Shown piece after piece: positions 43,437 to 54,090 of a stretch of 64,000 bases of DNA. A program made the translations under genes and the position numbers. The notes beneath the pieces were generated by a model. It did no database searches. It had not been told where the DNA came from and worked only from the letters and a program-made list of their open reading frames with translations. This stretch comes from Escherichia phage vB_EcoM-RPN242: sequence record OL656110.1. One strand, 5' to 3'. Position 1 is the first letter of the stretch. Each line of letters begins with the position of its first letter.

Positions 43437-43807
43437 AACGTACCCCCGACAGAGATCAAGAACTCTTCTTGCATGGTCTTGACCGGGTGGTGGTTGCGGG
43501 TTTCGAACATGAAGCCCCAGCCACCGTCGGCGACGTTGCCAAAGGTCTTGACGCCAAAGGACTTCGTCCCGTTAGAGCAGGAATAGATGTCCAGGACGTA
43601 TGGGCTACCCTGATTGTCGATCCCACGATTCACGTCGTCTGATACGCAGCGCTCAATCATCTTCCCGTTCTTATACAGAACGAGGTCTTGGCCATACGCC
43701 TTGAAAGCATAAACACCGTTGGTAGACACTCCGGTGATGACAGGAGGGGCGGAAACAGCAGCAAAGGAAGCGCCCAGCAGAGCAACAGCGAGGATTAACT
43801 TTTTCAT
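43433..43807 (-). CDS. secreted hypothetical protein
   Basis: Start at ATG 43807 (MKKLILAVALLGASFAAVSA...) with AGAGACTATATC leader. Confidence 0.55.
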   Translation of the reverse strand: MKKLILAVALLGASFAAVSAPPVITGVSTNGVYAFKAYGQDLVLYKNGKMIERCVSDDVNRGIDNQGSPYVLDIYSCSNGTKSFGVKTFGNVADGGWGFMFETRNHHPVKTMQEEFLISVGGTL

Positions 43808-43866
43808 GATATAGTCTCTTGGTTTCAAATGGGCGGGGTAATCATACCCCGCCCAAAGTTATAGAA

Positions 43867-44106
43867 TTAACTGATGTGCTTCAGAAGAGCGAAGAGGATC
43901 GCGGCCTTGGCCTTTACCTTTCCCACGATGCCTGTCTCGACATCAACTTCTTCAGCAACCCACTCTTTGCCTTTCTTGCTGATGATCACGTCACGGCGCT
44001 GTGCGTAGACTTCTTTGGTCGCATACACACGACGGAACCCTTTAGCGCGGAGCAATCCCCAATTACGATCAATTTCTACTGAGGTTTCTACCATTTTGTT
44101 CTTCAT
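43867..44106 (-). CDS. hypothetical protein (79 aa)
   Basis: Complete ORF with ATG start. Confidence 0.45.
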   Translation of the reverse strand: MKNKMVETSVEIDRNWGLLRAKGFRRVYATKEVYAQRRDVIISKKGKEWVAEEVDVETGIVGKVKAKAAILFALLKHIS

Positions 44107-44189
44107 GATATAATCTTACCTTTCAACCCGGTGAACCCATCGTTCGCCAGTTATTGAATAATAGGACATTCCTTAGAGGAAGTAAACCC

Positions 44190-44223
44190 CTAAAAGTAAA
44201 AATCCCCAACGTTTGTTGGGGAC
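44190..44223 (-). terminator. rho-independent terminator
   Basis: tccccaac-gttt-gttgggga hairpin (44203..44222) followed on minus strand by TTTTTACTTTTA. Confidence 0.7.
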
Positions 44224-44228
44224 TTCTG

Positions 44229-44552
44229 TTATTTGCGCAGGGCAACCACGAGTTCAGCGAGTTCACCAATGGTCGGGTCATCACCTTTACTACCCAGCCA
44301 ACCGTCGTCGATTTCGACCTGAAACTCTTCTTCTAGTTCCATTACGATTTCGATGGCATCCAGTTCGTCACCGCCGAGGTCTTTCTTGGTACGGAGACCA
44401 GCCAGCTTGTCCAGGGCGTCCTCGTTCTGAGATGCCACGTCGTCCAGCAATTTGCGCTTGTCATCGTCACGCCACAGATCCATATTCAGATTGTCAGTGG
44501 CGTACTGAGCCAGATGACGCATGACTTCAACATATGTTGGTTTACTGCTCAT
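44229..44552 (-). CDS. acyl-carrier-protein-fold protein lacking the phosphopantetheine serine (DSL -> DEL)
   Basis: 107 aa; KKDLGGDELDAIEIVMELEEEFQVEIDD parallels E. coli ACP [27 protein letters not shown]; DNA reads gac-gaa-ctg-gat, so Glu replaces the carrier Ser. Confidence 0.55.
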   Translation of the reverse strand: MSSKPTYVEVMRHLAQYATDNLNMDLWRDDDKRKLLDDVASQNEDALDKLAGLRTKKDLGGDELDAIEIVMELEEEFQVEIDDGWLGSKGDDPTIGELAELVVALRK

Positions 44553-44555
44553 GCT

Positions 44556-44590
44556 ACTTCTCCCAAAGAAAGGCGGGTTGCCCCGCCCGT
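44556..44590 (-). terminator. hairpin terminator/attenuator in leader of ACP-like gene
   Basis: ggcggg-ttgcc-cccgcc hairpin (44572..44588) followed on minus strand by CTTTCTTTGGG, about 20 nt upstream of the ATG at 44552. Confidence 0.5.
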
Positions 44591-44594
44591 TGGA

Positions 44595-46796
44595 TTAGAT
44601 TTTGATTTCTTTCTCTGTCAGTTCGGCAGTGACCTTGTACTTCACGCCATCCACTTCAACTTCCATGGTGGACTCTTCCAGGTCGAGGTCGGTGAACCAG
44701 CCGTGGCCAGCAACGATACCATACACCACTTTAGACAGTGTCTTGTTCAGGGCACGGACTTCGGTGATGGCCGCCTTGGCAGCAGCGTCGATCCAGTTTT
44801 CGATCAGCTGTTTCTGTAAGGCTTCAGGCACGGCAGTGATCATAGGAGACTTCACGAATGCTTCGTACTCTTTCAGAGCATTGGCGATGAACAAGTCACC
44901 AGCATTGAGTTTCTTGTTCTCTGCGATCTTCTTCTGTACTGCCGCGATGCTCGGTAGTGAAGACGCCCCGGCGATCTTCACGTTCAGCTCACGGCTCATG
45001 TAGAAGTCGGTAGACTCTTTGGTCTCAGTCTTCGGTGAGAAGCCGTAATCGCGGATGCCGTAGGAGGACAGGAACTCGGCCGCCTCAGCGCCGTACTGTA
45101 CTGCCAGGCCTTTGGCGTTACCCTTACCAACCAGGGCGTCTCGATAGAACTTCAGCACCTTCTGCTTGCCTTTCAGGGCTTCCAGACGGACATTATCCGC
45201 AAAGAACTGAGCAGCACTGATGTTCTTGACCATGGCGCGGTTGACCAGCGGTACGCTTTCCAGGTTCAGGACAAACACTTCCGGACCACCAAACACGTGG
45301 ACGCCCATTTCGATCAGCTTCTGTACAACTTCGATATCAGCCTTGAACGGCAGAGTCTTCACGTTAATGATACCGTCTTTGACGATGGTGTAGTTGCGCC
45401 ACTGGAAAGTATCCAGTTCTTCAGGCAGGCCAAACTTCTTCTGTGCGAATTCAGGCACAGCCACAGTACCGTGTTGAATTGTACGCACACTGATGTTCGG
45501 GCGCTCGGAGTTATAGACCAAATCACTGATTGGCACAACACCCAGATCGTTGGTAGGTTCGAACGTCGGGTTCCACTCTTCGTGCTCTGCCAGCTTGAGA
45601 GCCAGGGCTTTACGCTCTTCTTTGGACTGAGCATTCGCGATCTGTTCTGCCAGCTTGTCTTCGGTGTCGTCGGTTTTCTGCACAGTACCGCGCCCGATGC
45701 TCTTGTAGGAGAACATCGGATGCTTGGTAGCAACAGGCACACCAGCTTCAGCCAGGTACGTCAGAACATCAACGACGGTCGTCGCATCTTCGGCCGGAAC
45801 CAGGTCATAGTCAATACCGTCAACGCCGCGCAGCTGGTCATCAACGATGGCCTGGGTCAGATCGTTCTTGATGTTGGAGTAGTCCTGCTTGGTGAAGCAG
45901 TTGCTGTACTGTTTGATGAAGCGAACGTCGCCCGTCTTCTTCAGCGCAGCCCAAACCAGATCTGCGTCCATAGTGTGTACGCCGTAGAACGCCAGCACGT
46001 ATGCCGCCTGGATGTCCGCCAGGCTATCCATCTGGTCGATCATGTTAGGGTTTACAACCCACAGCTTGGTGACGCTCTCAGGGATGCTCACGTGGCCGAT
46101 AGGATGGTCTTCATCCGGCTGTACCGCCAGAACAGTTGCTACGCCGTTTTCAACATAGATAGCGTGGGTGTATAGCAGAGGCACATCAACAACCACCTTC
46201 GGTACTGATGACTTCAGCACGTTTTCCAGTTCGGTCTGGTATTCGGTCTGACCTTCGGCAAACACGTGAGTAGCACCAGAGCGTTCGGCCATCTGCGTCA
46301 GCAGTTCACGGTTACAGTGCCAGCCGTATTCGATAAATGTAATGTTATCGAAAGCAAATGGCAGGGTCTCAGCAACCAGTAGAATTTCGTTGGTACGCCA
46401 GCAGTTGTCATACCCGTCAGTCATGAACGCCAGGTTGTTGACGTAGCCAGGTTTCTTCAGGTCACGCGCAGTATCCATCGCCAGTTTCAATGGCTCAACG
46501 AATCCAGTACATCCGGACGGTTGCAGGAAGCGATCGATCAGTTTGTTCAGCTCGCTCAGGTCAGACGCAGCACCAACCTGGCGGCCAGCGAACACAGTGC
46601 CAAAGTCGCCTTTGGATGAGAAGTATAGAACACTTACAGTGTCTTCCGGTTTCACCAGGGAAGGCAGGTTCTCCTTCAGGTGCTTGCGGACTTCAGGAAG
46701 CGCACGGTACATAGAGCCGGAAATGTCTACAACGATTACATGGTTGGACGGAGCAGCAGTCGCAACCGCATTCTTAAATTCTAATGATTCAATCAT
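44595..46796 (-). CDS. large von Willebrand factor A (MIDAS) domain protein
   Basis: 733 aa from ATG 46796 (MIESLEFKN...); N-terminal vWA motifs HVIVVDISGSM (DxSxS) and FMTDGYDN; about 550 aa of unassigned C-terminal sequence. Confidence 0.65.
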   Translation of the reverse strand: MIESLEFKNAVATAAPSNHVIVVDISGSMYRALPEVRKHLKENLPSLVKPEDTVSVLYFSSKGDFGTVFAGRQVGAASDLSELNKLIDRFLQPSGCTGFVEPLKLAMDTARDLKKPGYVNNLAFMTDGYDNCWRTNEILLVAETLPFAFDNITFIEYGWHCNRELLTQMAERSGATHVFAEGQTEYQTELENVLKSSVPKVVVDVPLLYTHAIYVENGVATVLAVQPDEDHPIGHVSIPESVTKLWVVNPNMIDQMDSLADIQAAYVLAFYGVHTMDADLVWAALKKTGDVRFIKQYSNCFTKQDYSNIKNDLTQAIVDDQLRGVDGIDYDLVPAEDATTVVDVLTYLAEAGVPVATKHPMFSYKSIGRGTVQKTDDTEDKLAEQIANAQSKEERKALALKLAEHEEWNPTFEPTNDLGVVPISDLVYNSERPNISVRTIQHGTVAVPEFAQKKFGLPEELDTFQWRNYTIVKDGIINVKTLPFKADIEVVQKLIEMGVHVFGGPEVFVLNLESVPLVNRAMVKNISAAQFFADNVRLEALKGKQKVLKFYRDALVGKGNAKGLAVQYGAEAAEFLSSYGIRDYGFSPKTETKESTDFYMSRELNVKIAGASSLPSIAAVQKKIAENKKLNAGDLFIANALKEYEAFVKSPMITAVPEALQKQLIENWIDAAAKAAITEVRALNKTLSKVVYGIVAGHGWFTDLDLEESTMEVEVDGVKYKVTAELTEKEIKI

Positions 46797-47004
46797 TGTT
46801 CTCTTCGCCTTGTGCGTAAGGGTTAAGTTCAGACTCATCAGCGGCTTCGATGCGCGTCTTTACAGAGTCCAGCATATTGTTGATAAACTCACGAGACTGC
46901 TCCAGCTGAGCCAAGAGCACATCCTTTGGAGCATAGTTCTGAATGCAAGCCGGAATACTTTCAGACGTCGCCTTCAGGTCGGTAAAACATTCTTTCAGTA
47001 TCAT
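46789..47004 (-). CDS. hypothetical protein (71 aa)
   Basis: Complete ORF with ATG start; overlaps vWA gene start by 8 nt. Confidence 0.45.
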   Translation of the reverse strand: MILKECFTDLKATSESIPACIQNYAPKDVLLAQLEQSREFINNMLDSVKTRIEAADESELNPYAQGEENND

Positions 47005-47086
47005 TTGATCTCACTTAACAGAGACGACACCCTGTTGGGATTTAATAGCGGTCTTCACGCGCCAGGGGTGATAGAATCACCGTAGA

Positions 47087-47320
47087 TCAGGCCGATGTGC
47101 TCATCCAACAGGAAGTGCCCAGTTTCAAAGATCTCCCACAGGCGCTGGATAGAGCCAACCGCTTCTGAACGTCTGATGATTTGATGTGAGCATCAATCAC
47201 CACGTTCTGAACATGGCCGATAGGGATACCAGATTTTTGAATCTTGATATGTTCCTCACCACCTGGGAAGGTGAAGTGTTTGTAGAACACATCTTGGTCG
47301 TTCAATTTCAAACGAAACAT
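47087..47320 (-). CDS. hypothetical protein; reading frame appears to continue in another frame
   Basis: 77-aa ORF with ATG start; after about residue 47 a protein-like continuation (RSEAVGSIQRLWEIFETGHFLLDEHIGLIYGDSITPGA) exists in a different frame ending near 47055. Confidence 0.4.
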   Translation of the reverse strand: MFRLKLNDQDVFYKHFTFPGGEEHIKIQKSGIPIGHVQNVVIDAHIKSSDVQKRLALSSACGRSLKLGTSCWMSTSA

Positions 47321-47428
47321 AATGTAACCTCATGGTGTATTGTACAGCCGTATTATACTGTGATGTACAAATTGAAACGCCCAGCATTTACGCTGGACGT
47401 TATTGATATTGAAAAGGTTTTGACAAAC

Positions 47429-47662
47429 TCAGGATTTGGAGGAAGCGCCCTTCCATGTCTGACGTTTGTAGTGGGAAGCCATGGCCATCGACCCGGCGTA
47501 TTGCGTTTCACCCCTGACCACCACAGCCACAACCAGCTTATGTCGTAACAGGAAGTCCAGACCTGACTTAGACGGGATATCGCCAATGCTCAGTGGACCA
47601 CGATTGTACAGGGCATACATGGTGTCAAGCGCCGCCCCGGTAAAGATAATCTCTTTAGACAT
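47429..47662 (-). CDS. hypothetical protein (77 aa)
   Basis: Start at internal ATG 47662 (MSKEIIF...). Confidence 0.4.
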   Translation of the reverse strand: MSKEIIFTGAALDTMYALYNRGPLSIGDIPSKSGLDFLLRHKLVVAVVVRGETQYAGSMAMASHYKRQTWKGASSKS

Positions 47663-47669
47663 GGCGGTC

Positions 47670-47975
47670 TCACTTAAACGAGTCAACGATGGATGTAAGA
47701 ATTTCGGGGGTGGGTTTGGCGTCTTGTGGTTCACGGAAACCCACCTTTGCGATGCGGCCCAAGACATTGTACACTTCGCGCGGAAGGGTGTCTACGACCG
47801 TGTCCGACATGAACGCCACGTCTTCTTGGATGGCGTTGTATTCGGCCAGTTTAGCCAGTTCTGATTCTACCAGGGACTTCAGCTTTTGCAATGGGTCGTT
47901 GCAATAGTTGAGACGGTTGCAGTTGGTGAGCGCCTGAGTTAGATTCTCAAACGCTTCTTGTATTTCCTTTGACAT
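47670..47975 (-). CDS. hypothetical protein (101 aa)
   Basis: Start at ATG 47975 (MSKEIQEAF...). Confidence 0.45.
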   Translation of the reverse strand: MSKEIQEAFENLTQALTNCNRLNYCNDPLQKLKSLVESELAKLAEYNAIQEDVAFMSDTVVDTLPREVYNVLGRIAKVGFREPQDAKPTPEILTSIVDSFK

Positions 47976-48357
47976 TGATATGTGCCTCGTATTGTTGACA
48001 GACAACAACTACTTTACGGCACATGTCGATATCGAACAAGCCAATATGACACTCACGCTTCTTTATCCCCAGCTTATGCGCCAGCCAACTATAAGCGTCG
48101 CTCCTGCTCCTCTCTCCGCTTTTCCACAATGGGTCAAACGATCTATGGGCTTCCTGCTTAGCAGCACGGAGAGCGGCATTCGCCATCCTTCCCAAAGGTT
48201 GTCTGCCGTCGCCATGGGTATGGCAACCGACACGGGCATCACATGGAGTGCACACCCAGAACTTCAGATTGCGGAGGTCAGGGCGATGAGGGTAGAGAAC
48301 ATCACCACCGACGAATTCGGCTGGGAGGCCGCAGTAATCACAAATGACAGGTTTCAT
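47947..48357 (-). CDS. zinc-ribbon protein (DUF3268-like)
   Basis: Start at ATG 48357 (MKPVICDYCGLPAEFVGG...); second Cys cluster CTPCDARVGCH. Confidence 0.5.
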   Translation of the reverse strand: MKPVICDYCGLPAEFVGGDVLYPHRPDLRNLKFWVCTPCDARVGCHTHGDGRQPLGRMANAALRAAKQEAHRSFDPLWKSGERSRSDAYSWLAHKLGIKKRECHIGLFDIDMCRKVVVVCQQYEAHINVKGNTRSV

Positions 48358-48417
48358 ATTCTTTGTCCAAAAGAAACCCCGCACATGGCGGGGTTGCTCA
48401 GGCTGAGGTCAGACAGA

Positions 48418-48789
48418 TTATTTCAGGAGTGCTTCCAGTTCTTCAACAGATTTGCTTTCCAGCTCTTGCTGTTTCTTACGTTGGATCAGCTCCAGGATAA
48501 CCTGGTTGTTCGCCTTACGCTCTGCCGCTTCTCTGCTGTCGTCACGTTCTTTCAGCTTAACGCCGATGATGTGCTTGACAACGTCGAAGCGCAGCTGCAG
48601 TTCGGAGTCAACGTTGCTTTTGGTACCAATGAAATCTTCTTCATCGGTTTCTGCTGCTTTCACCTGACGGCTCAGACCTTTCGCCATTTCGTTCAGGGCA
48701 GTCAGGCTCAGGTCCCAGACCTGCTCAACAGACAGCAGACCTTTGTTAGACTCGAAGCGCAGTTTCATACGGGTTGCTTTATCAAACAT
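48418..48789 (-). CDS. hypothetical coiled-coil protein (123 aa)
   Basis: Complete ORF with ATG start; charged helical C-terminus. Confidence 0.5.
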   Translation of the reverse strand: MFDKATRMKLRFESNKGLLSVEQVWDLSLTALNEMAKGLSRQVKAAETDEEDFIGTKSNVDSELQLRFDVVKHIIGVKLKERDDSREAAERKANNQVILELIQRKKQQELESKSVEELEALLK

Positions 48790-48833
48790 TTTACTATCCT
48801 CAATGATGAATGGGTTACAATTTCAAATCAGGT

Positions 48834-50852
48834 TTAGAACACAACTTTCACAGTGCGGTTGAACGAACCGCTCACCTTCACGAACACGTGGTTGCGTTGG
48901 GTGGTAGAGAAGCCCAGACCGGACAGCTGCTCAGTGCTTGGCTGTACTTTAATCTTACCACCTAACATTTCAAAAACCTTGCGGTGTTTATCAAGTTCCG
49001 GCTTCAGATATTCGTTATAGAAACCACGGGTGCCGACAGGGTTAGCACAACCTTCCAGGATGAAGAACACGTGCTTGTTGCCAGTCTGCTCGCCGTCCCA
49101 ATGGTTTGGTGAGTTCAGAACCAGCTGTACCTTCTGGAAGACGGAGGTCTTGATGCCCCAGATTTCCTGAGAGCGAGCGTCGTCTTTCAGGGTAGAACTG
49201 ATGTCAACCACCTGACCAGCGCGAACCTGAACCACAACAGCCAACGTGCGATCTTTGTTGCCCAGGCCAGGGTGTGAGAAGCGCTTAGTCTGGCCTTTGT
49301 ATTCAACTTCGATTTCGAAACCAACGTCACAGGTTTCACGCTTGTTGAAGTTGGTGACATAGAACTCATAATTCCCGTCACGCAACTTGCGTTCATCGCT
49401 AAAGAAGATGTTCTCCACCGGACGGCGGTTTGGATCAATGCCGTCCATACCGTTCATGTCGATGTCCAGAGTTGCGCCAGTTGTCGAACGACGGTTGCGA
49501 AAATATACGTGGTTGTGAAGAGGATCGTTCATGCTCAGATCCAGGTCGTCGTTGTTATGCCAAGCCAGTGACACGCGGAGGAAGCTGTCGACATTGCCGC
49601 CTGCGGTCTTCACGCGCTCTTTGATGGAGTCGGCCACTTCGCCATTGTACGACCAGCTGAAGCCGTTGTTCCACTTGAACAGGTTAGGAGCGCCTGCGGT
49701 AGCCGGAGCGATCAGGGACATCAGGTTGCCAATGTGAGAGTTTTCGACCAGCACTTCTAGGGAATGCGCCTTTGGCAACACGTTGGTCAGGAAGTCGTCG
49801 ATCGTGATCTCTTCAACCTTGTCCAGGGACTTTGTCGGAGTCTTCACTTCAGACGCCAGCTGAGCAAACGGGTCCATCTTCTTCTGAGCTGCCAGATCGG
49901 CGAACAGAACGTTGTTGATGGTCAGATCGTCATACACGGCATAACGGCGACCCAGTGAATCAGTCAGACCCAGCGCTTCGACTTCTTTCTGCGCGTTTTC
50001 AATCATCGACTTCGTGACCAGCGCGGTTGGGCGCTTGTAGTTCGTCGGAGCGACTTTGGCTTCAAAGGACTTCACGGCGGTTTCCAGATCCCGGCCTTCA
50101 TTGAGGTCTACCAGCAGAGAGCCAATCACGGTATTACGAATGCCGTGAGGGGTATGACCGTTTGCACGGTAGCCAGTGCGCCAAGCCCACAGAGCGCGTT
50201 TCTCTTCTGCAGTTTGTTCGTACAGGGTCTTGTTCACCACGAACGCCTGCACTGCCGCTTTGTGCTCTTCACCGCGATACAGAGAATTCTGGTCGATCAA
50301 TTCCAGAACGATTTCAGCCGATTCCAGAGACAGTTCACGCAGGCCGCGCTCAAACACTTCAATCGCCTGGCGGATTTCACCCTTCTTAGAAGCGATGGTA
50401 TCTGCCCGCAGAACATAGCTGCTCAGCAGGTCGGTGTGGAAGTGGTTGTAGGTGCGGACAATACCGTCTTTCATTTCGTGATTCGACCCAACACCAACTT
50501 TCTTGGTGTCGTTGAAGTACACGTCGACGATTGCGTGCTGCTTAACATATGCTGACAGCGCCGCAGCGACAACGTCGTATTCGTTACCCAACTGAATGTT
50601 ATCCCAGATAGAGATCACGTTCAGGTCGGAGTCGATGGTGACCACACCGCCGATGTTACGGATGAATTGTTTACAGCAGGTGCAGTCGTGCTCGGTACGC
50701 TCACGATAAAGCGGGTTAGTGCCAGCAGGGAAAGAAGACAGATACAGATCCCACAGAGCATCTTTATCGATGTTGGTCATGAACAGACCAGTTGCTGACA
50801 TGGCCCGCACGTTATTGTTGACAGCTACTGCGAAGGACTTAAAATCTGACAT
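48834..50852 (-). CDS. large hypothetical protein (672 aa) with N-terminal Cys cluster
   Basis: ATG start with AGGAAGATTACATC leader; HDCTCCKQF near N-terminus; no Walker or polymerase motifs recognised. Confidence 0.7.
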   Translation of the reverse strand: MSDFKSFAVAVNNNVRAMSATGLFMTNIDKDALWDLYLSSFPAGTNPLYRERTEHDCTCCKQFIRNIGGVVTIDSDLNVISIWDNIQLGNEYDVVAAALSAYVKQHAIVDVYFNDTKKVGVGSNHEMKDGIVRTYNHFHTDLLSSYVLRADTIASKKGEIRQAIEVFERGLRELSLESAEIVLELIDQNSLYRGEEHKAAVQAFVVNKTLYEQTAEEKRALWAWRTGYRANGHTPHGIRNTVIGSLLVDLNEGRDLETAVKSFEAKVAPTNYKRPTALVTKSMIENAQKEVEALGLTDSLGRRYAVYDDLTINNVLFADLAAQKKMDPFAQLASEVKTPTKSLDKVEEITIDDFLTNVLPKAHSLEVLVENSHIGNLMSLIAPATAGAPNLFKWNNGFSWSYNGEVADSIKERVKTAGGNVDSFLRVSLAWHNNDDLDLSMNDPLHNHVYFRNRRSTTGATLDIDMNGMDGIDPNRRPVENIFFSDERKLRDGNYEFYVTNFNKRETCDVGFEIEVEYKGQTKRFSHPGLGNKDRTLAVVVQVRAGQVVDISSTLKDDARSQEIWGIKTSVFQKVQLVLNSPNHWDGEQTGNKHVFFILEGCANPVGTRGFYNEYLKPELDKHRKVFEMLGGKIKVQPSTEQLSGLGFSTTQRNHVFVKVSGSFNRTVKVVF

Positions 50853-50966
50853 GATGTAATCTTCCTGTTTCAGTTCAAATGTGCGCCCCGTTTGCCAGGG
50901 CGCTTCGTTTAAGTGAGGTCAGTATACGCTGGATTGAGTTATTGAAGAACGAAGTAAAGGGAATCT
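50853..50966 (-). promoter_or_regulatory. intergenic cassette C (degenerate copy): TTTACTTCGTTCTTCAATA ... TATACT plus leader hairpin
   Basis: Minus strand carries CCCTTTACTTCGTTCTTCAATAACTCAATCCAGCGTATACT (TATACT = 50921..50926) and leader hairpin gcgccc-cgtttgcca-gggcgc (50883..50903); -35/-10 spacing is non-canonical. Confidence 0.35.
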
Positions 50967-51955
50967 TTATTCAGAAGAACCATATCGTTCTGTCCATTTA
51001 GGACATTTCAAAGGTTCCCACCCTCTATTGAAACGTTCGATAATGCTGTTTGTCGCATTAAAAGCCTTCAGGTCTTTTGTTCTGTACACATGCATGAGGG
51101 CTTCCGCTCTTTTCATTGTTTTTATTGCTTCAAGGAATTTATCAGCTTTTGACCAATACGCATCATTGTCGGGGTTCCATTTACCCTTCTCCCAAGGCAT
51201 CTTAGCCAACATGCCTTTCTGAGCGTTTTCTTTCTGTTTGGCGCGTTGCTCTGGTGTGAATGAGTTGGTTAAGTCCTTCCCATAATTGGGATTGAGTTCC
51301 CCAAGTTTAGCTTTACTGGCACGTTCAGAAAATTGTTCTAAATCTATGTTGGCGCGGCGTTTCTCTAAAACCCGCCTTTTATATTCAGGATCAGAAGCCA
51401 TCCTTTCATGGATTTTCATCAATCCTTTGGTAATTTTCTTGACTTGCTCTGGGGTTCTCTTATATCCATATTGGGGATTATTCTTTCCTCTTCTCCCATA
51501 CATTGGGTTGTTTGCCCCGACGCATTTGGAGACACCCTTTGTGAGTTTGGATATTCTTTGTCCAAATTCTTTCCTTAACTTTTCGTAAAGGTGAGAATTA
51601 AATTTTATACCCGTTGGTGTATACCTACCCCCACGGCTCATCAAAAGAACAGCATATACCATATCAGAATTCGGGAAAGCCAAGGCCAAGCATACATGGA
51701 CAAGATAATGTTGTCTGCCTGTTAATCGAACCAAATTTATCTTATCTTTAGAATATTCAGGGAACATGCTCTTGGGAAGGATGTGGTGCAATTCAGTGTA
51801 GTCACCATCAGAATATTTGAAAGATTGAACCATCATCAAATACTTCTTGATGAAATGCGGTTTACCGCCTTTAGAAATCAATAATTCGTAAAACATAACA
51901 GGAACTCCAAATGAAAGTTCCTGTTATAATATACTTTCTTAACTCACAAAGTAAG
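50860..51955 (-). mobile_element. free-standing homing-endonuclease insertion (candidate mobile element)
   Basis: AT-rich island holding only the HNH gene, inserted between two conserved-looking genes and bounded by intergenic AT-rich sequence on both sides. Confidence 0.45.
50967..51896 (-). CDS. HNH homing endonuclease with NUMOD-like repeats
   Basis: 309 aa; HNH core ELHHILPKS ... N ... H; repeated NPMYGRRGKNNPQYG and NPNYGK motifs; ATG start with GGAG RBS. Confidence 0.75.
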   Translation of the reverse strand: MFYELLISKGGKPHFIKKYLMMVQSFKYSDGDYTELHHILPKSMFPEYSKDKINLVRLTGRQHYLVHVCLALAFPNSDMVYAVLLMSRGGRYTPTGIKFNSHLYEKLRKEFGQRISKLTKGVSKCVGANNPMYGRRGKNNPQYGYKRTPEQVKKITKGLMKIHERMASDPEYKRRVLEKRRANIDLEQFSERASKAKLGELNPNYGKDLTNSFTPEQRAKQKENAQKGMLAKMPWEKGKWNPDNDAYWSKADKFLEAIKTMKRAEALMHVYRTKDLKAFNATNSIIERFNRGWEPLKCPKWTERYGSSE

Positions 51956-53149
51956 TTACTTTTTAAATAAATTTAGTAGGTTTTTAGAACCAGATGTCGC
52001 TTTAGGTTGTCCTTCCCCATCGTATCCAACCTTCCCGCGCGGTTTTTTACCTTGCTGTACAGCCTCTACACAACGGGTATATTTCTGAAGTTCACAAAAC
52101 ATATTTTCTCCTGCCATTATATTTAAATGGCGATCCCAAGGCTCTTCCACAGACCAAAATTCTTCCCTGTTATACCCAAGAGGACCATAAACTGCGTCCT
52201 GGTTGTCCCGTAGCCAGAAGATGCATTCTTCGTGGGTCATACCGTCTTTGTTCAGGAACAGCAGATCAATACCTGCGCGACAGCCTGGTCCAGCAACCGT
52301 GAAGTGGTTCTCACTGAAAGGATATTCAGGAATGTAAGTGAAGTCTACCCAGATCTGATAGGCCAGGAATGGACCAAGCCCTTCGATGTCGTCATACATG
52401 CGCTGGTATACTTCCAAAGGAGTACCAAGGCGCAGCAGGTCATGGAAATAATTTGGATACTTGTTGACGAATGCCTTCAGGGAGCGGATGACACGCATTG
52501 GCATGTACGGTTCCCAACCTTCGATGGTGTAGAAGTCCGGCTCTGCTTCGGCTATCGCCTTGGCTTCTTTATAATCCATGTTCTGGGTTGAACCGTCTTT
52601 ACAGATCAGATTCACCATCATCCCACCGAAGCGCTGCTCCTTGTGGTTGACAACCATCTCAGGGAAAGCCAGGCATTGCTTCAGGCCGCCCGTGTTGAAG
52701 GCATTGGTGAATACCTTACCGCCGTCGGCCTCGAACTTCTGAAGTCGTTCGCGGGTTGCATCGAGGTTGATCTCGGCGAATTCTTTGATCGTCATCGCGC
52801 CGCCGATAGCCTGGATTGGATCCCAGAGGTTGAACATGCGGAACATCACGCAGTTGAACATCTTGTCGGCCATACCCAGAGCATCGTTGTTGACAATGTT
52901 GTTGATCAGGTTGAGAGACTGCCTGTCGTGCTCTCTCCGGACATTACAGAACTTGACCTGCCGTAGTATGGGATTATCAGTCCAAGGAGCAGGAAGGCGC
53001 TGGACGTCCTTCTTGACGTGGATCTGATAACGATCGCGCATCCATTCGTAAGACAGGCGGGTATGGGTCGGACTGAGAACCGGTTTGGCCGACTTTATCT
53101 TTTCTTCACGGACACCGCAGTACGGGACGTCTAGGGCTTTATCTTTCAT
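51956..53149 (-). CDS. hypothetical enzyme-sized protein (397 aa)
   Basis: ATG start with AAGAGGATACC leader; no motif recognised. Confidence 0.65.
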   Translation of the reverse strand: MKDKALDVPYCGVREEKIKSAKPVLSPTHTRLSYEWMRDRYQIHVKKDVQRLPAPWTDNPILRQVKFCNVRREHDRQSLNLINNIVNNDALGMADKMFNCVMFRMFNLWDPIQAIGGAMTIKEFAEINLDATRERLQKFEADGGKVFTNAFNTGGLKQCLAFPEMVVNHKEQRFGGMMVNLICKDGSTQNMDYKEAKAIAEAEPDFYTIEGWEPYMPMRVIRSLKAFVNKYPNYFHDLLRLGTPLEVYQRMYDDIEGLGPFLAYQIWVDFTYIPEYPFSENHFTVAGPGCRAGIDLLFLNKDGMTHEECIFWLRDNQDAVYGPLGYNREEFWSVEEPWDRHLNIMAGENMFCELQKYTRCVEAVQQGKKPRGKVGYDGEGQPKATSGSKNLLNLFKK

Positions 53150-53217
53150 GGTATCCTCTTAGAATACGAAAACAGAGGCCATTATAGCCTCTGTTGTTTA
53201 GTGAATAACTGTATATC

Positions 53218-54090
53218 TTAATCGATACGGGTCAGTTGGGTGATAGATGATTGCACTGGGCTGGCCACATAGATACGGACGTTGGCTTTCCATTCACCCC
53301 AGATCAACGGCAGAGTTGGGAAGTTGTCTTCATTGAAAACAAACACGGGAATGTAGCTCTCGACTGTTTCGCCAGAGAACGCCTGAAAGCCCATCTTGGT
53401 GTATCCCATGATCTCGTCAATAAAATCGAACGGAGCGAAGGCAACACCAGCGTGTTCGTTAGAACCGAGCTGGCCTGGAATGGCCGTGCCCGTCAGAATG
53501 ATTTCGGTGATCTGGCGCTTAGGCTCGGTGGTCAACATATCAGAGAAGTCAGGCTCTTTGAAGGTTGCCATGTTCTTCAGGAACTTGCCAGCCGGGTACT
53601 CTTTGCCGTCGACAGTGATGGTGTCCACCACTTTGATGCACGCCTGAGGGAATTCCCCTTCGATGCGCAGACTTTCGCGTGGGAAGCCTTTGTTGTAGTA
53701 GTAATCCAGTGCAGGCACAACTTCACCTTCATTACGGATGAACTTGCTCATGTTAGAGGCATACACGCGCTGTAGGCATTCGTCACCGTCGAAACCAGCA
53801 ATATGAGCCACACCGTCGTTGACTGTTGTGATGTCGCCCTGGGCGTCCATGATCTGGCGCATGATGTCTTTGATGTCGACAACAACGGGTTCTTTCAGGA
53901 CTCGCGGAGATGCAGTGAACTCAATTTTCACCTCGTGGTCGAAATACGCCGCTTCCAGCAGTTCACGGGTTTCTTCCAGCACCAGTTTCGCCTGATTGCG
54001 GATCTTACCAAAGTCGGGCGATGTGACGTCGCCCTTTGCATTACCGAAAGCCAGATTCAGATTCACGTTCTTGGAAAATGTAGTTGTCAT
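53218..54090 (-). CDS. hypothetical protein (290 aa) immediately downstream of regA
   Basis: Complete ORF with ATG start; occupies the position where T4 carries gene 43. Confidence 0.65.
   Translation of the reverse strand: MTTTFSKNVNLNLAFGNAKGDVTSPDFGKIRNQAKLVLEETRELLEAAYFDHEVKIEFTASPRVLKEPVVVDIKDIMRQIMDAQGDITTVNDGVAHIAGFDGDECLQRVYASNMSKFIRNEGEVVPALDYYYNKGFPRESLRIEGEFPQACIKVVDTITVDGKEYPAGKFLKNMATFKEPDFSDMLTTEPKRQITEIILTGTAIPGQLGSNEHAGVAFAPFDFIDEIMGYTKMGFQAFSGETVESYIPVFVFNEDNFPTLPLIWGEWKANVRIYVASPVQSSITQLTRID

Follow-up and report, generated by a model that had tools for sequence, protein, structure and literature searches.

A syntenic block of Ackermannviridae phage genes with a DUF8224 two-gene module, a NARP1 relic, a vWA protein and a serine-less ACP-like protein

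The genes at positions 44229-50852 of the stretch of Escherichia phage vB_EcoM-RPN242 analysed here (64,000 nucleotides of record OL656110.1, hereafter the window) raise a simple question: do genes that are packed together and read in one direction also work together? A preliminary description of the sequence proposed that they do, as an operon-like unit under one promoter cassette, for example for anti-defence or the takeover of host metabolism. Our comparison of gene content and neighbourhoods across phages leads to a different answer. The segment 44229-50966 is probably a stretch of conserved synteny within the early/middle replication and nucleotide-metabolism region, made up of four functionally independent parts. 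Along it lie the genes for a DUF8224 protein and a 123-aa partner, a variable spot in which the NAD+-restoring pathway NARP1 survives as a relic, the gene for a vWA protein, and the gene for an acyl carrier protein (ACP)-like protein that has lost the carrier serine.

Conserved order within the family and separation outside it

The window phage belongs to the Ackermannviridae. The block (6.7 kb) matches 264 phage records, nearly all from this family and with Escherichia phage LHE287 as the best match (97.5% over the full length); it is already present in hundreds of published genomes, and the window is a further instance. Upstream of the block, in the sense of transcription, are the genes for the clamp loader, regA, a MazG-like pyrophosphatase and alpha-glutamyl/putrescinyl thymine pyrophosphorylase (aGPT); downstream come small genes and those for spanins, a helicase, an HU-like protein, RNase H and gp55. 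The block therefore lies within the replication and nucleotide-metabolism region. The order aGPT, DUF8224, coiled-coil gene, variable spot, vWA and ACP-like is kept in Kuttervirus, Taipeivirus, Miltonvirus and Aglimvirinae-like relatives. The principal proteins, all encoded on the minus strand, are as follows.

48834..50852, minus strand: DUF8224 protein, 672 aa (PF26675, phrog_1735; phrog_1735 at E=0, positions 1-673 of 673)
48418..48789, minus strand: DUF8224 partner, 123 aa (phrog_2018), adjoining DUF8224 in 80 of 80 IMG/VR loci
44595..46796, minus strand: vWA protein, 733 aa (phrog_2426); Pfam VWA (PF00092), 29.2 bits against a cut-off of 23.8
44229..44552, minus strand: ACP-fold protein, 107 aa, pI 4.3; Pfam PP-binding (PF00550), E 8e-7, 29.6 bits against a cut-off of 20.8

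Outside the family these genes part company. The 80 IMG/VR loci used to sample the surroundings of DUF8224 comprise 18 from Ackermannviridae and 62 from elsewhere, and the vWA, ACP-like and aGPT genes lie near DUF8224 in those 18 only (0/62 outside). Conversely, none of 53 vWA loci outside the family has DUF8224, its partner or the ACP-like gene within 8 kb, and no neighbour family recurs in more than 13 of the 53. The sets of phages and hosts that carry vWA and DUF8224 overlap only partly, and in one 148.7-kb contig (L087/L127) that has both genes they are about 30 kb apart. This separation identifies the block as a case of synteny and not as a functional unit: the idea of a unit holds as far as gene order within the Ackermannviridae goes, and fails outside the family, where the DUF8224 pair occurs without vWA or ACP-like genes and vWA stands alone in 53 of 53 loci. 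The comparison of presence and absence across related phages thus gives a split result, the genes being found together inside the family and apart beyond it.

The open reading frames (ORFs) of the preliminary description are all present on the minus strand and co-oriented, and its statement that no core replication or structural function can be recognised is borne out: the block's nine proteins have no match to a replication or structural family in Pfam, NCBIfam, PADLOC or PDB sequence searches, and PHROGs assigns each block ORF to a phage family for which no function is known, save the ACP-like protein ('acyl carrier protein' family). Plus-strand ORFs within the block (up to 292 aa) were set aside as antisense artefacts because they have no PHROG match. 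An Rfam search over 43500-53500 at E<=1 returned two chance matches only and no known RNA element such as the DUF3268 RNA motif.

A variable spot with an eroded NARP1 locus

The region between the 123-aa gene and the vWA gene is an accessory-gene hot-spot, the content of which varies even among near-identical phages.

LHE287: NARP1 (also in AV101)
fGh-Ecl02: a 120-aa gene
ZQ1: nothing, with DUF3268 absent too
CBA120: a 241-aa gene
Taipeivirus UPM 2146: NARP1 directly after the 123-aa gene

In the window the same region holds the following features.

47947..48357, minus strand: DUF3268 zinc-ribbon protein, 136 aa, 8 Cys; Pfam PF11672, E 2.7e-37, positions 2-120 of 121
47670..47975, minus strand: small acidic ORF, 101 aa (phrog_9847), found in LHE287 and fGh-Ecl02 and absent in ZQ1
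47429..47662, minus strand: small basic ORF, 77 aa (phrog_15102), annotated as hypothetical in LHE287 and fGh-Ecl02
47050..47320, minus strand: NARP1 relic, about 270 bp, seen by blastn against LHE287; the adps 5' end fused to a namat fragment
46789..47004, minus strand: small acidic ORF, 71 aa, which also precedes vWA in several Ackermannviridae loci

The LHE287 match to the block spans 9.0 kb, about 2.3 kb more than the window has, and the extra DNA, present also in AV101, P46FS4, Ag3 and SKML-39, carries annotations for a nicotinamide phosphoribosyltransferase and a ribose-phosphate pyrophosphokinase. We take these genes to be NARP1 from the presence of a Prs-like gene adjoining a NAMPT-like gene, the arrangement described under that name. 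NARP1, consisting of Adps and Namat, rebuilds NAD+ from ADP-ribose and nicotinamide and has been shown experimentally to overcome NAD+-depleting defences (bioRxiv 10.1101/2024.02.11.579819; PMC12774641). Among the 18 Ackermannviridae IMG/VR loci, the spot holds an intact NARP1 in five and a scar in one.

The relic in the window derives from the adps-namat pair that occupies the same position in LHE287, AV101, P46FS4, Ag3, SKML-39 and Taipeivirus UPM 2146. In it, the first 48 codons of adps (about 47177-47320) are joined to a 131-nt internal fragment of namat (47050-47180). The adps codons and the region upstream of them are 98% identical to LHE287, and the flanks together with the adps 5' end 98-99%. 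Relative to LHE287, one deletion of 1830 bp lies at the microhomology GATGAT (47175-47180) and another of 444 bp at the microhomology GGTCTTCAC (47050-47058), and the namat fragment carries a further 1-nt insertion and a 15-nt deletion. As the product of this two-deletion fusion, the apparent 77-aa ORF at 47087-47320 is a pseudogene; the NAMPT and Prs families of PHROGs match it over the N-terminal 60-65 residues only (profile positions 1-65). Among the small ORFs of the preliminary description this one, a fusion of two deleted genes, is not a gene.

Position and sequence establish descent from NARP1, both genes being annotated at the orthologous site in LHE287, whereas an intact Prs-like adps (about 284 aa, with its catalytic Lys) next to an intact NAMPT-like namat (about 554 aa) is not found here. 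With about 2.27 kb gone, neither enzyme retains a catalytic region, and the residual fragment has acquired further indels; judged by its sequence, the NARP1 pathway is non-functional in the window phage. The same scar is present in a 154-kb IMG/VR genome (L030) that is about 96-97% identical over the aligned parts of the block, and because this genome is independent, the scar must have been inherited and cannot come from faulty assembly. In the window lineage NARP1 was destroyed by two deletions, each between short direct repeats, and protection against NAD+ depletion should have been lost with it. It follows as a prediction that the window phage, unlike its closest relatives, should plate poorly on hosts with type I Thoeris, DSR1/2 or SIR2-HerA, and this loss would matter in choosing such Ackermannviridae phages for biocontrol or therapy. 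The proposed anti-defence function is therefore borne out for one place in the block and for other phages, namely the variable spot of the closest relatives; it does not extend to the rest of the block, and in the window phage NARP1 itself has been deleted. The hot-spot, now delimited, is a likely place to find new anti-defence genes of Ackermannviridae.

Other features of the spot can be mentioned beside the relic. A perfect, promoter-like TATAAT of adps (within 47348-47360) and a hairpin CCAGCGTAAATGCTGG (47369-47396), both on the minus strand, remain upstream of the dead adps start; with its own genes gone, this NARP1 promoter region may have come to drive transcription of the 71-aa ORF and of vWA. 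The 71-aa ORF overlaps the vWA start by 8 nt, which makes translational coupling likely. In the genome that shares the scar, about 575 bp over the 101-aa and the basic 77-aa ORFs (window 47413-47987) does not align, a further cassette exchange in the hot-spot. The DUF3268-like zinc-ribbon protein of the preliminary description is confirmed by its Pfam match, which takes in the CxxC...CxxC zinc ribbon; its length of 136 aa follows from the start used in close relatives. It is absent from the near-identical vB_EcoM-ZQ1, and outside the family it lies within 10 kb of DUF8224 in 5 of the 62 loci.

DUF8224 and its 123-aa partner

The 672-aa protein and the coiled-coil protein of the preliminary description are both present, the latter as the 123-aa ORF, and their association is the most constant feature of the block. 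In all 80 loci the partner lies beside DUF8224, immediately downstream in 77 and immediately upstream in 3, and the two are also adjacent in L003, L005, phiCbK and MaMV-CH01. For the purpose of this analysis we defined a DUF8224 two-gene module by a partner of about 125-135 aa with an RxKLRF...EDLWDL motif, adjacent and on the same strand, and the window pair has this form; the conserved N-terminal motif of the partner reads RxKLRF..KG.L[ST]VEDLWDL and is followed by a charged helical C-terminus. The two genes form an obligate module, carried by hundreds of large virulent phages that infect proteobacteria, Bacillus, cyanobacteria or Bacteroidetes.

DUF8224 is exceptionally widespread. It occurs in at least 556 phage records and in thousands of metagenomic clusters. 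The search for homologues returned more than 5,400 clusters, from unrelated phages and one Bradyrhizobium contig, and full-length identity is still 50% at the 120th best. All of these homologues carry PF26675, and the family was assigned through them; the local Pfam copy gave no match for either the 672-aa or the 123-aa protein. The phages include Ackermannviridae, Klebsiella, Cronobacter, Erwinia and Acinetobacter phages of about 145-150 kb, phiCbK, phiRSL1, Bacillus cereus phages of about 155-160 kb, and Microcystis and Cellulophaga phages. Identity is about 50% among enterobacterial, alpha-proteobacterial and marine phages, homology is still recognisable in the Bacillus, Microcystis and Cellulophaga phages, and the mean column identity of the alignment is 58%. 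Such conservation implies an important, universal substrate and makes the pair a good target for functional work.

In the protein itself, the N-terminal Cys cluster noted in the preliminary description is conserved (EHDCTCCK, residues 57-60, 50673-50684). The N-terminal part combines alpha/beta and helical elements without a structural match; a TerD-like beta-sandwich follows at about residues 420-560 (49173-49595), and then a C-terminal alpha/beta domain. The TerD-like domain may bind a metal or a ligand. PDB sequence searches with DUF8224, its profile and the partner matched no solved structure, the partner has no Pfam match, and the BFVD fold matches of DUF8224 are uncharacterised viral proteins only. 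One of these, A0A1V0SEF2 of the giant eukaryotic virus Indivirus ILV1 (624 aa), matches the DUF8224 model with a Foldseek E of 1.8e-6 and probability 1.0; on the predicted model, the fold family may reach beyond phages. Some records label DUF8224 as 'putative DNA-directed RNA polymerase' and others as 'coil containing protein', and our searches back neither. A literature search found no paper mentioning DUF8224.

What does the pair do? Clustering of neighbours in the 62 loci outside the family gave no family besides the partner in more than 10. Under looser clustering the commonest neighbours there were DNA polymerase A (17/62) and ATP-dependent DNA ligase (15/62), other common ones being DnaB-, Dda/PIF1- and SNF2-type helicases, and in Xp12 the pair is surrounded by the ribonucleotide reductase (RNR), polynucleotide kinase (PNK) and ligase genes. 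Because of the strong sequence conservation, these neighbouring genes in other phages and the TerD-like domain, we infer that DUF8224 and its partner would form a complex with a non-structural role in the replication or repair of phage DNA.

The vWA and ACP-like proteins

The 733-aa protein was correctly recognised as a vWA protein. Its start was taken as that used in close relatives; residues 1-14 of the long ORF have pLDDT <50. An N-terminal domain with an intact MIDAS motif (D-x-S-x-S, Thr, Asp) adjoins a beta-sandwich, followed by about 430 aa of helical and beta domains, and the MIDAS residues are invariant or nearly so among homologues. The predicted model (pLDDT 89.9) matches proteins with a vWA domain and a beta-sandwich over about 300 residues; these structural kin are a Catenulispora vWA protein (4fx5), archaeal ArnB (8s05/5a8j), the Sec23/24 trunk and the Ku70 N-terminal region. 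The remaining residues, about 430, have no counterpart among the matches listed, and a PDB sequence search matched the vWA domain alone. Homologues form 214 clusters and occur in 503 phage records, from Ackermannviridae, from Klebsiella, Citrobacter, Cronobacter and Enterobacter phages of about 175 kb, and from pf16, AR9 and Rhizobium phages. The label 'minor tail protein' carried by vWA in a record, and that of 'putative acyl carrier protein' on a 56-aa ORF upstream of vWA in ZQ1, are not backed by our searches.

As a large vWA protein encoded among early/middle genes, it resembles the vWA members of the MoxR-vWA and CobS-CobT chaperone pairs of large phages. Unlike in those pairs, however, the block proteins include no AAA+ domain, and no conserved partner lies beside the 53 vWA genes outside the family. 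A vWA/MIDAS protein that stands alone in this way would probably use its metal site to clamp an acidic residue on a partner protein. A few of the 53 loci have homologues of Namat, Adps, HNH or DUF3268; in three unrelated viral contigs (L140, L146 and L160) a Namat homologue lies within 8 kb of vWA, joined in L160 by an Adps homologue. This proximity may be due to chance, or both genes may favour accessory regions.

The 107-aa protein at the end of the block is ACP-like in its Pfam match, and the NCBIfam ACP models match it below their cut-offs only. It resembles AcpP (PF00550) in the helix II recognition region (LGxDxLDxVELVMxLEEEF), in its acidity and in its small size, and differs from it in a 25-30-residue N-terminal extension or insert, in a family-specific DDPT motif and, above all, at the phosphopantetheine site. 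Glu63 (codon 44364-44366) aligns with Ser36 of E. coli AcpP (GGDELD against GADSLD). E or D takes the place of the serine in the 19 family sequences without exception, as it does in gp092 of phiMAM1 and in each of the 7 distant full-length relatives; these relatives came from a profile search against 1.84 billion representatives, which had no more than 10 hits at E<=1e-10. From the missing serine it would follow that phosphopantetheinylation at the canonical site is impossible and that the protein is no acyl carrier in the usual sense; the identification as ACP-like thus stands for the domain and not for the function, and the widely propagated annotation 'acyl carrier protein' appears chemically wrong. 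The protein more probably acts by binding than by carrying, as a mimic of host ACP or as a MIDAS ligand of vWA. Among sequenced phages the family is confined to Ackermannviridae (271 records).

Shorter relatives outside the family were also seen, some with D-E-L-D and others with D-S-L-D. Four proteins outside the Ackermannviridae-type full-length family (P0291, P0293, P0296 and P0300) are serine-less (LGGDELD, LGADELD, DGDDLD) and have a C-terminal DDPT-type motif; their close relatives keep D-S-L-D, which suggests a repeated or ancient loss of carrier function.

Beyond four independent parts, two more specific proposals can be made. The first is tentative: DUF8224 and its partner may constitute a two-component machine for phage DNA metabolism that has so far gone unrecognised, similar in its degree of conservation to core replication enzymes and combining a TerD-like sensor domain with a new catalytic or metal-binding domain at the N-terminus, and the serine-less ACP mimics may be a phage family that targets host ACP-dependent enzymes or serves as MIDAS ligands. 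The second, which we regard as unlikely, makes vWA and the ACP-like protein a dedicated two-protein device, in which either the MIDAS metal binds Glu63 or another acidic residue, or the mimic titrates a host ACP-binding enzyme while vWA acts as the anchor. The nearly invariant MIDAS residues, the strong acidity of the ACP-like protein (27 D+E in 107 aa) and its invariant D-[E/D]-L-D would suit such a device, as would the position of its gene just downstream of vWA in the Ackermannviridae loci examined (both genes are carried in 18/18 and 22/22). Yet three small genes intervene between the two in phiMAM1, a terminator-like hairpin separates them in the window, and the 53 other phage vWA loci have no ACP-like neighbour.

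Transcription units

Whether the block is read as one operon bears directly on the view that it is one accessory module. The elements concerned are as follows.

50853..50966, minus strand: leader or intergenic region upstream of the DUF8224 gene, 114 bp, read directly from the sequence and kept in LHE287
48369..48395, minus strand: terminator-like hairpin AACCCCGC-CATGT-GCGGGGTT followed by TCTTTT, found by scan and direct reading, which closes the DUF8224/partner unit
44565..44588, minus strand: terminator-like hairpin GGGCGGG-GCAA-CCCGCC followed by TTTCTTT, between the vWA and ACP-like genes, found by scan and direct reading
44192..44222, minus strand: intrinsic terminator TCCCCAAC-AAAC-GTTGGGGA followed by TTTTTACTTTT, read directly, after the ACP-like gene at the end of the block

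The strong terminator at the end of the block is confirmed as a hairpin with a T-run. The leader, which had been taken for a promoter cassette ('cassette C') driving the whole operon, does not sustain that role. It contains a hairpin (GCGCCC-TGGCAAAC-GGGGCGC at 50883-50903), a possible -10 element (TATACT, 50921-50926) and a Shine-Dalgarno sequence (AGGAAG, 50861-50866), but a scan for the sigma-70 consensus found nothing on its minus strand, and blastn-short of 50853-50966 against the window returned chance 10-13-mers only, so the leader is not repeated there; the motif TTCAATAACT occurs in the window at chance frequency. Two terminator-like hairpins lie inside the block, as does a TATAAT upstream of the NARP1 relic. 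The record of Salmonella phage Marshall has terminators annotated at both of the same gene junctions and a third after its own variable gene. These internal hairpins and the Marshall terminators argue for separate transcription units and against a single operon.

The reading of the entire block as one operon-like module for anti-defence or host takeover can draw on the co-orientation and tight packing of the genes, on the terminator at their end and on an order conserved across Ackermannviridae genera, and also on the proven anti-defence system inside the block in relatives and on the filing of the ACP-like PHROG family under 'moron, auxiliary metabolic gene and host takeover'. We nevertheless consider it improbable. 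The co-occurrence counts largely refute it, the components being separate outside the family; a typical anti-defence gene would be much less conserved and widespread than DUF8224; and a PADLOC scan of the block proteins gave no meaningful defence or anti-defence match, to which the internal terminators, the internal promoter-like site and the character of the leader must be added.

Several points weigh in the opposite direction, that is, against four independent parts. Synteny within the family is strict, and a family-specific link may exist, for example between vWA and the ACP-like protein, which are adjacent or nearly so in 22 of 22 loci. The total of hairpins is not above chance (13 found, 10.2 expected in shuffles), what backs the named ones is the Marshall annotation and their T-runs, and terminator-like hairpins are no proof of termination, so that read-through could yield one long transcript. 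As for the DUF8224 pair, its suggested part in replication or repair is drawn from neighbourhood and conservation, and large phages cluster many unrelated early genes. A literature search found no transcriptome of Ackermannviridae. In RNA-seq of Ma-LMM01 (PMC5780444) the homologue would fall among the middle genes only by exclusion and with unverified gene mapping, and it is not used as evidence here.

Resemblance to Ter systems and to virion proteins

The TerD-like domain of DUF8224 and the presence of vWA (compare TerF/TerY) could call to mind the TerD-containing Ter stress-response system, which was reportedly treated by Anantharaman, Iyer and Aravind in 2012. Together with the phosphoribosyltransferase (PRTase)-type enzymes of the relatives, they would then make up a phage version of the tellurite-resistance/Ter stress and exclusion system. 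Ter components (TerD, the vWA protein TerF, PRTases) do occur in some phages (PMC7824862, PMC8386662), and 'tellurium resistant like protein' is the name given to one of the BFVD matches (E 7e-4). Even so, this origin seems very improbable. DUF8224 shares with TerD a fold and no detectable sequence homology: residues 415-560 have no Pfam TerD match at E<=10, and hhalign of the DUF8224 alignment against a TerD sequence gave a probability of 0.3%. The domain context differs as well, being that of a 672-aa multidomain protein with an obligate 123-aa partner. No Ter-family match was found in Pfam, PHROG or NCBIfam among the block's nine proteins, to which that scan was limited; TerB, TerC, TelA and TerZ are lacking among them, and neighbour clustering around DUF8224 and vWA gave no recurrent Ter partner. 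Moreover, DUF8224 and vWA do not co-occur outside Ackermannviridae, and the PRTase-like genes of the relatives are the characterised NARP1 enzymes, not Ter biosynthetic enzymes.

The weakest alternative is that the large proteins are virion or assembly components, as the automatic labels 'tail protein', 'minor head protein' and 'minor tail protein' in a few records would have it. Two of the proteins detected in phage Sajous1 are labelled 'putative RNA polymerase', one of them presumably the DUF8224 homologue. These two, vWA and the ACP-like protein were all found in CsCl-purified Sajous1 virions, but with 1-3 spectra each, compared with 196-311 for the most abundant virion-associated proteins (PMC10892097). 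These trace counts and the absence of the T4-type late promoter motif TATAAATA from 44229-50966 argue against a structural role, as do PHROG families without a structural category and the location of the genes among replication genes; a virion role, which would have spoken against an accessory block in another way, is therefore barely credible.

The HNH and aGPT genes upstream

Two genes upstream of the block may be added. Between the DUF8224 leader and the aGPT gene sits a gene for a 309-aa HNH endonuclease (50967-51896, minus strand), which the closest relatives LHE287, fGh-Ecl02 and ZQ1 lack; in LHE287 the leader comes immediately after aGPT. Some Kuttervirus loci (L021, L025) have an HNH homologue at this site. 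Next to the HNH gene, about 230 nt at the 3' end of aGPT (51956-52186) do not align with LHE287, as expected for co-conversion during homing. The aGPT gene itself (397 aa, 51956-53149, minus strand) is annotated as alpha-glutamyl/putrescinyl thymine pyrophosphorylase clade 1 in the relative CAU_YEP3, an annotation that would imply thymidine hypermodification by the phage.

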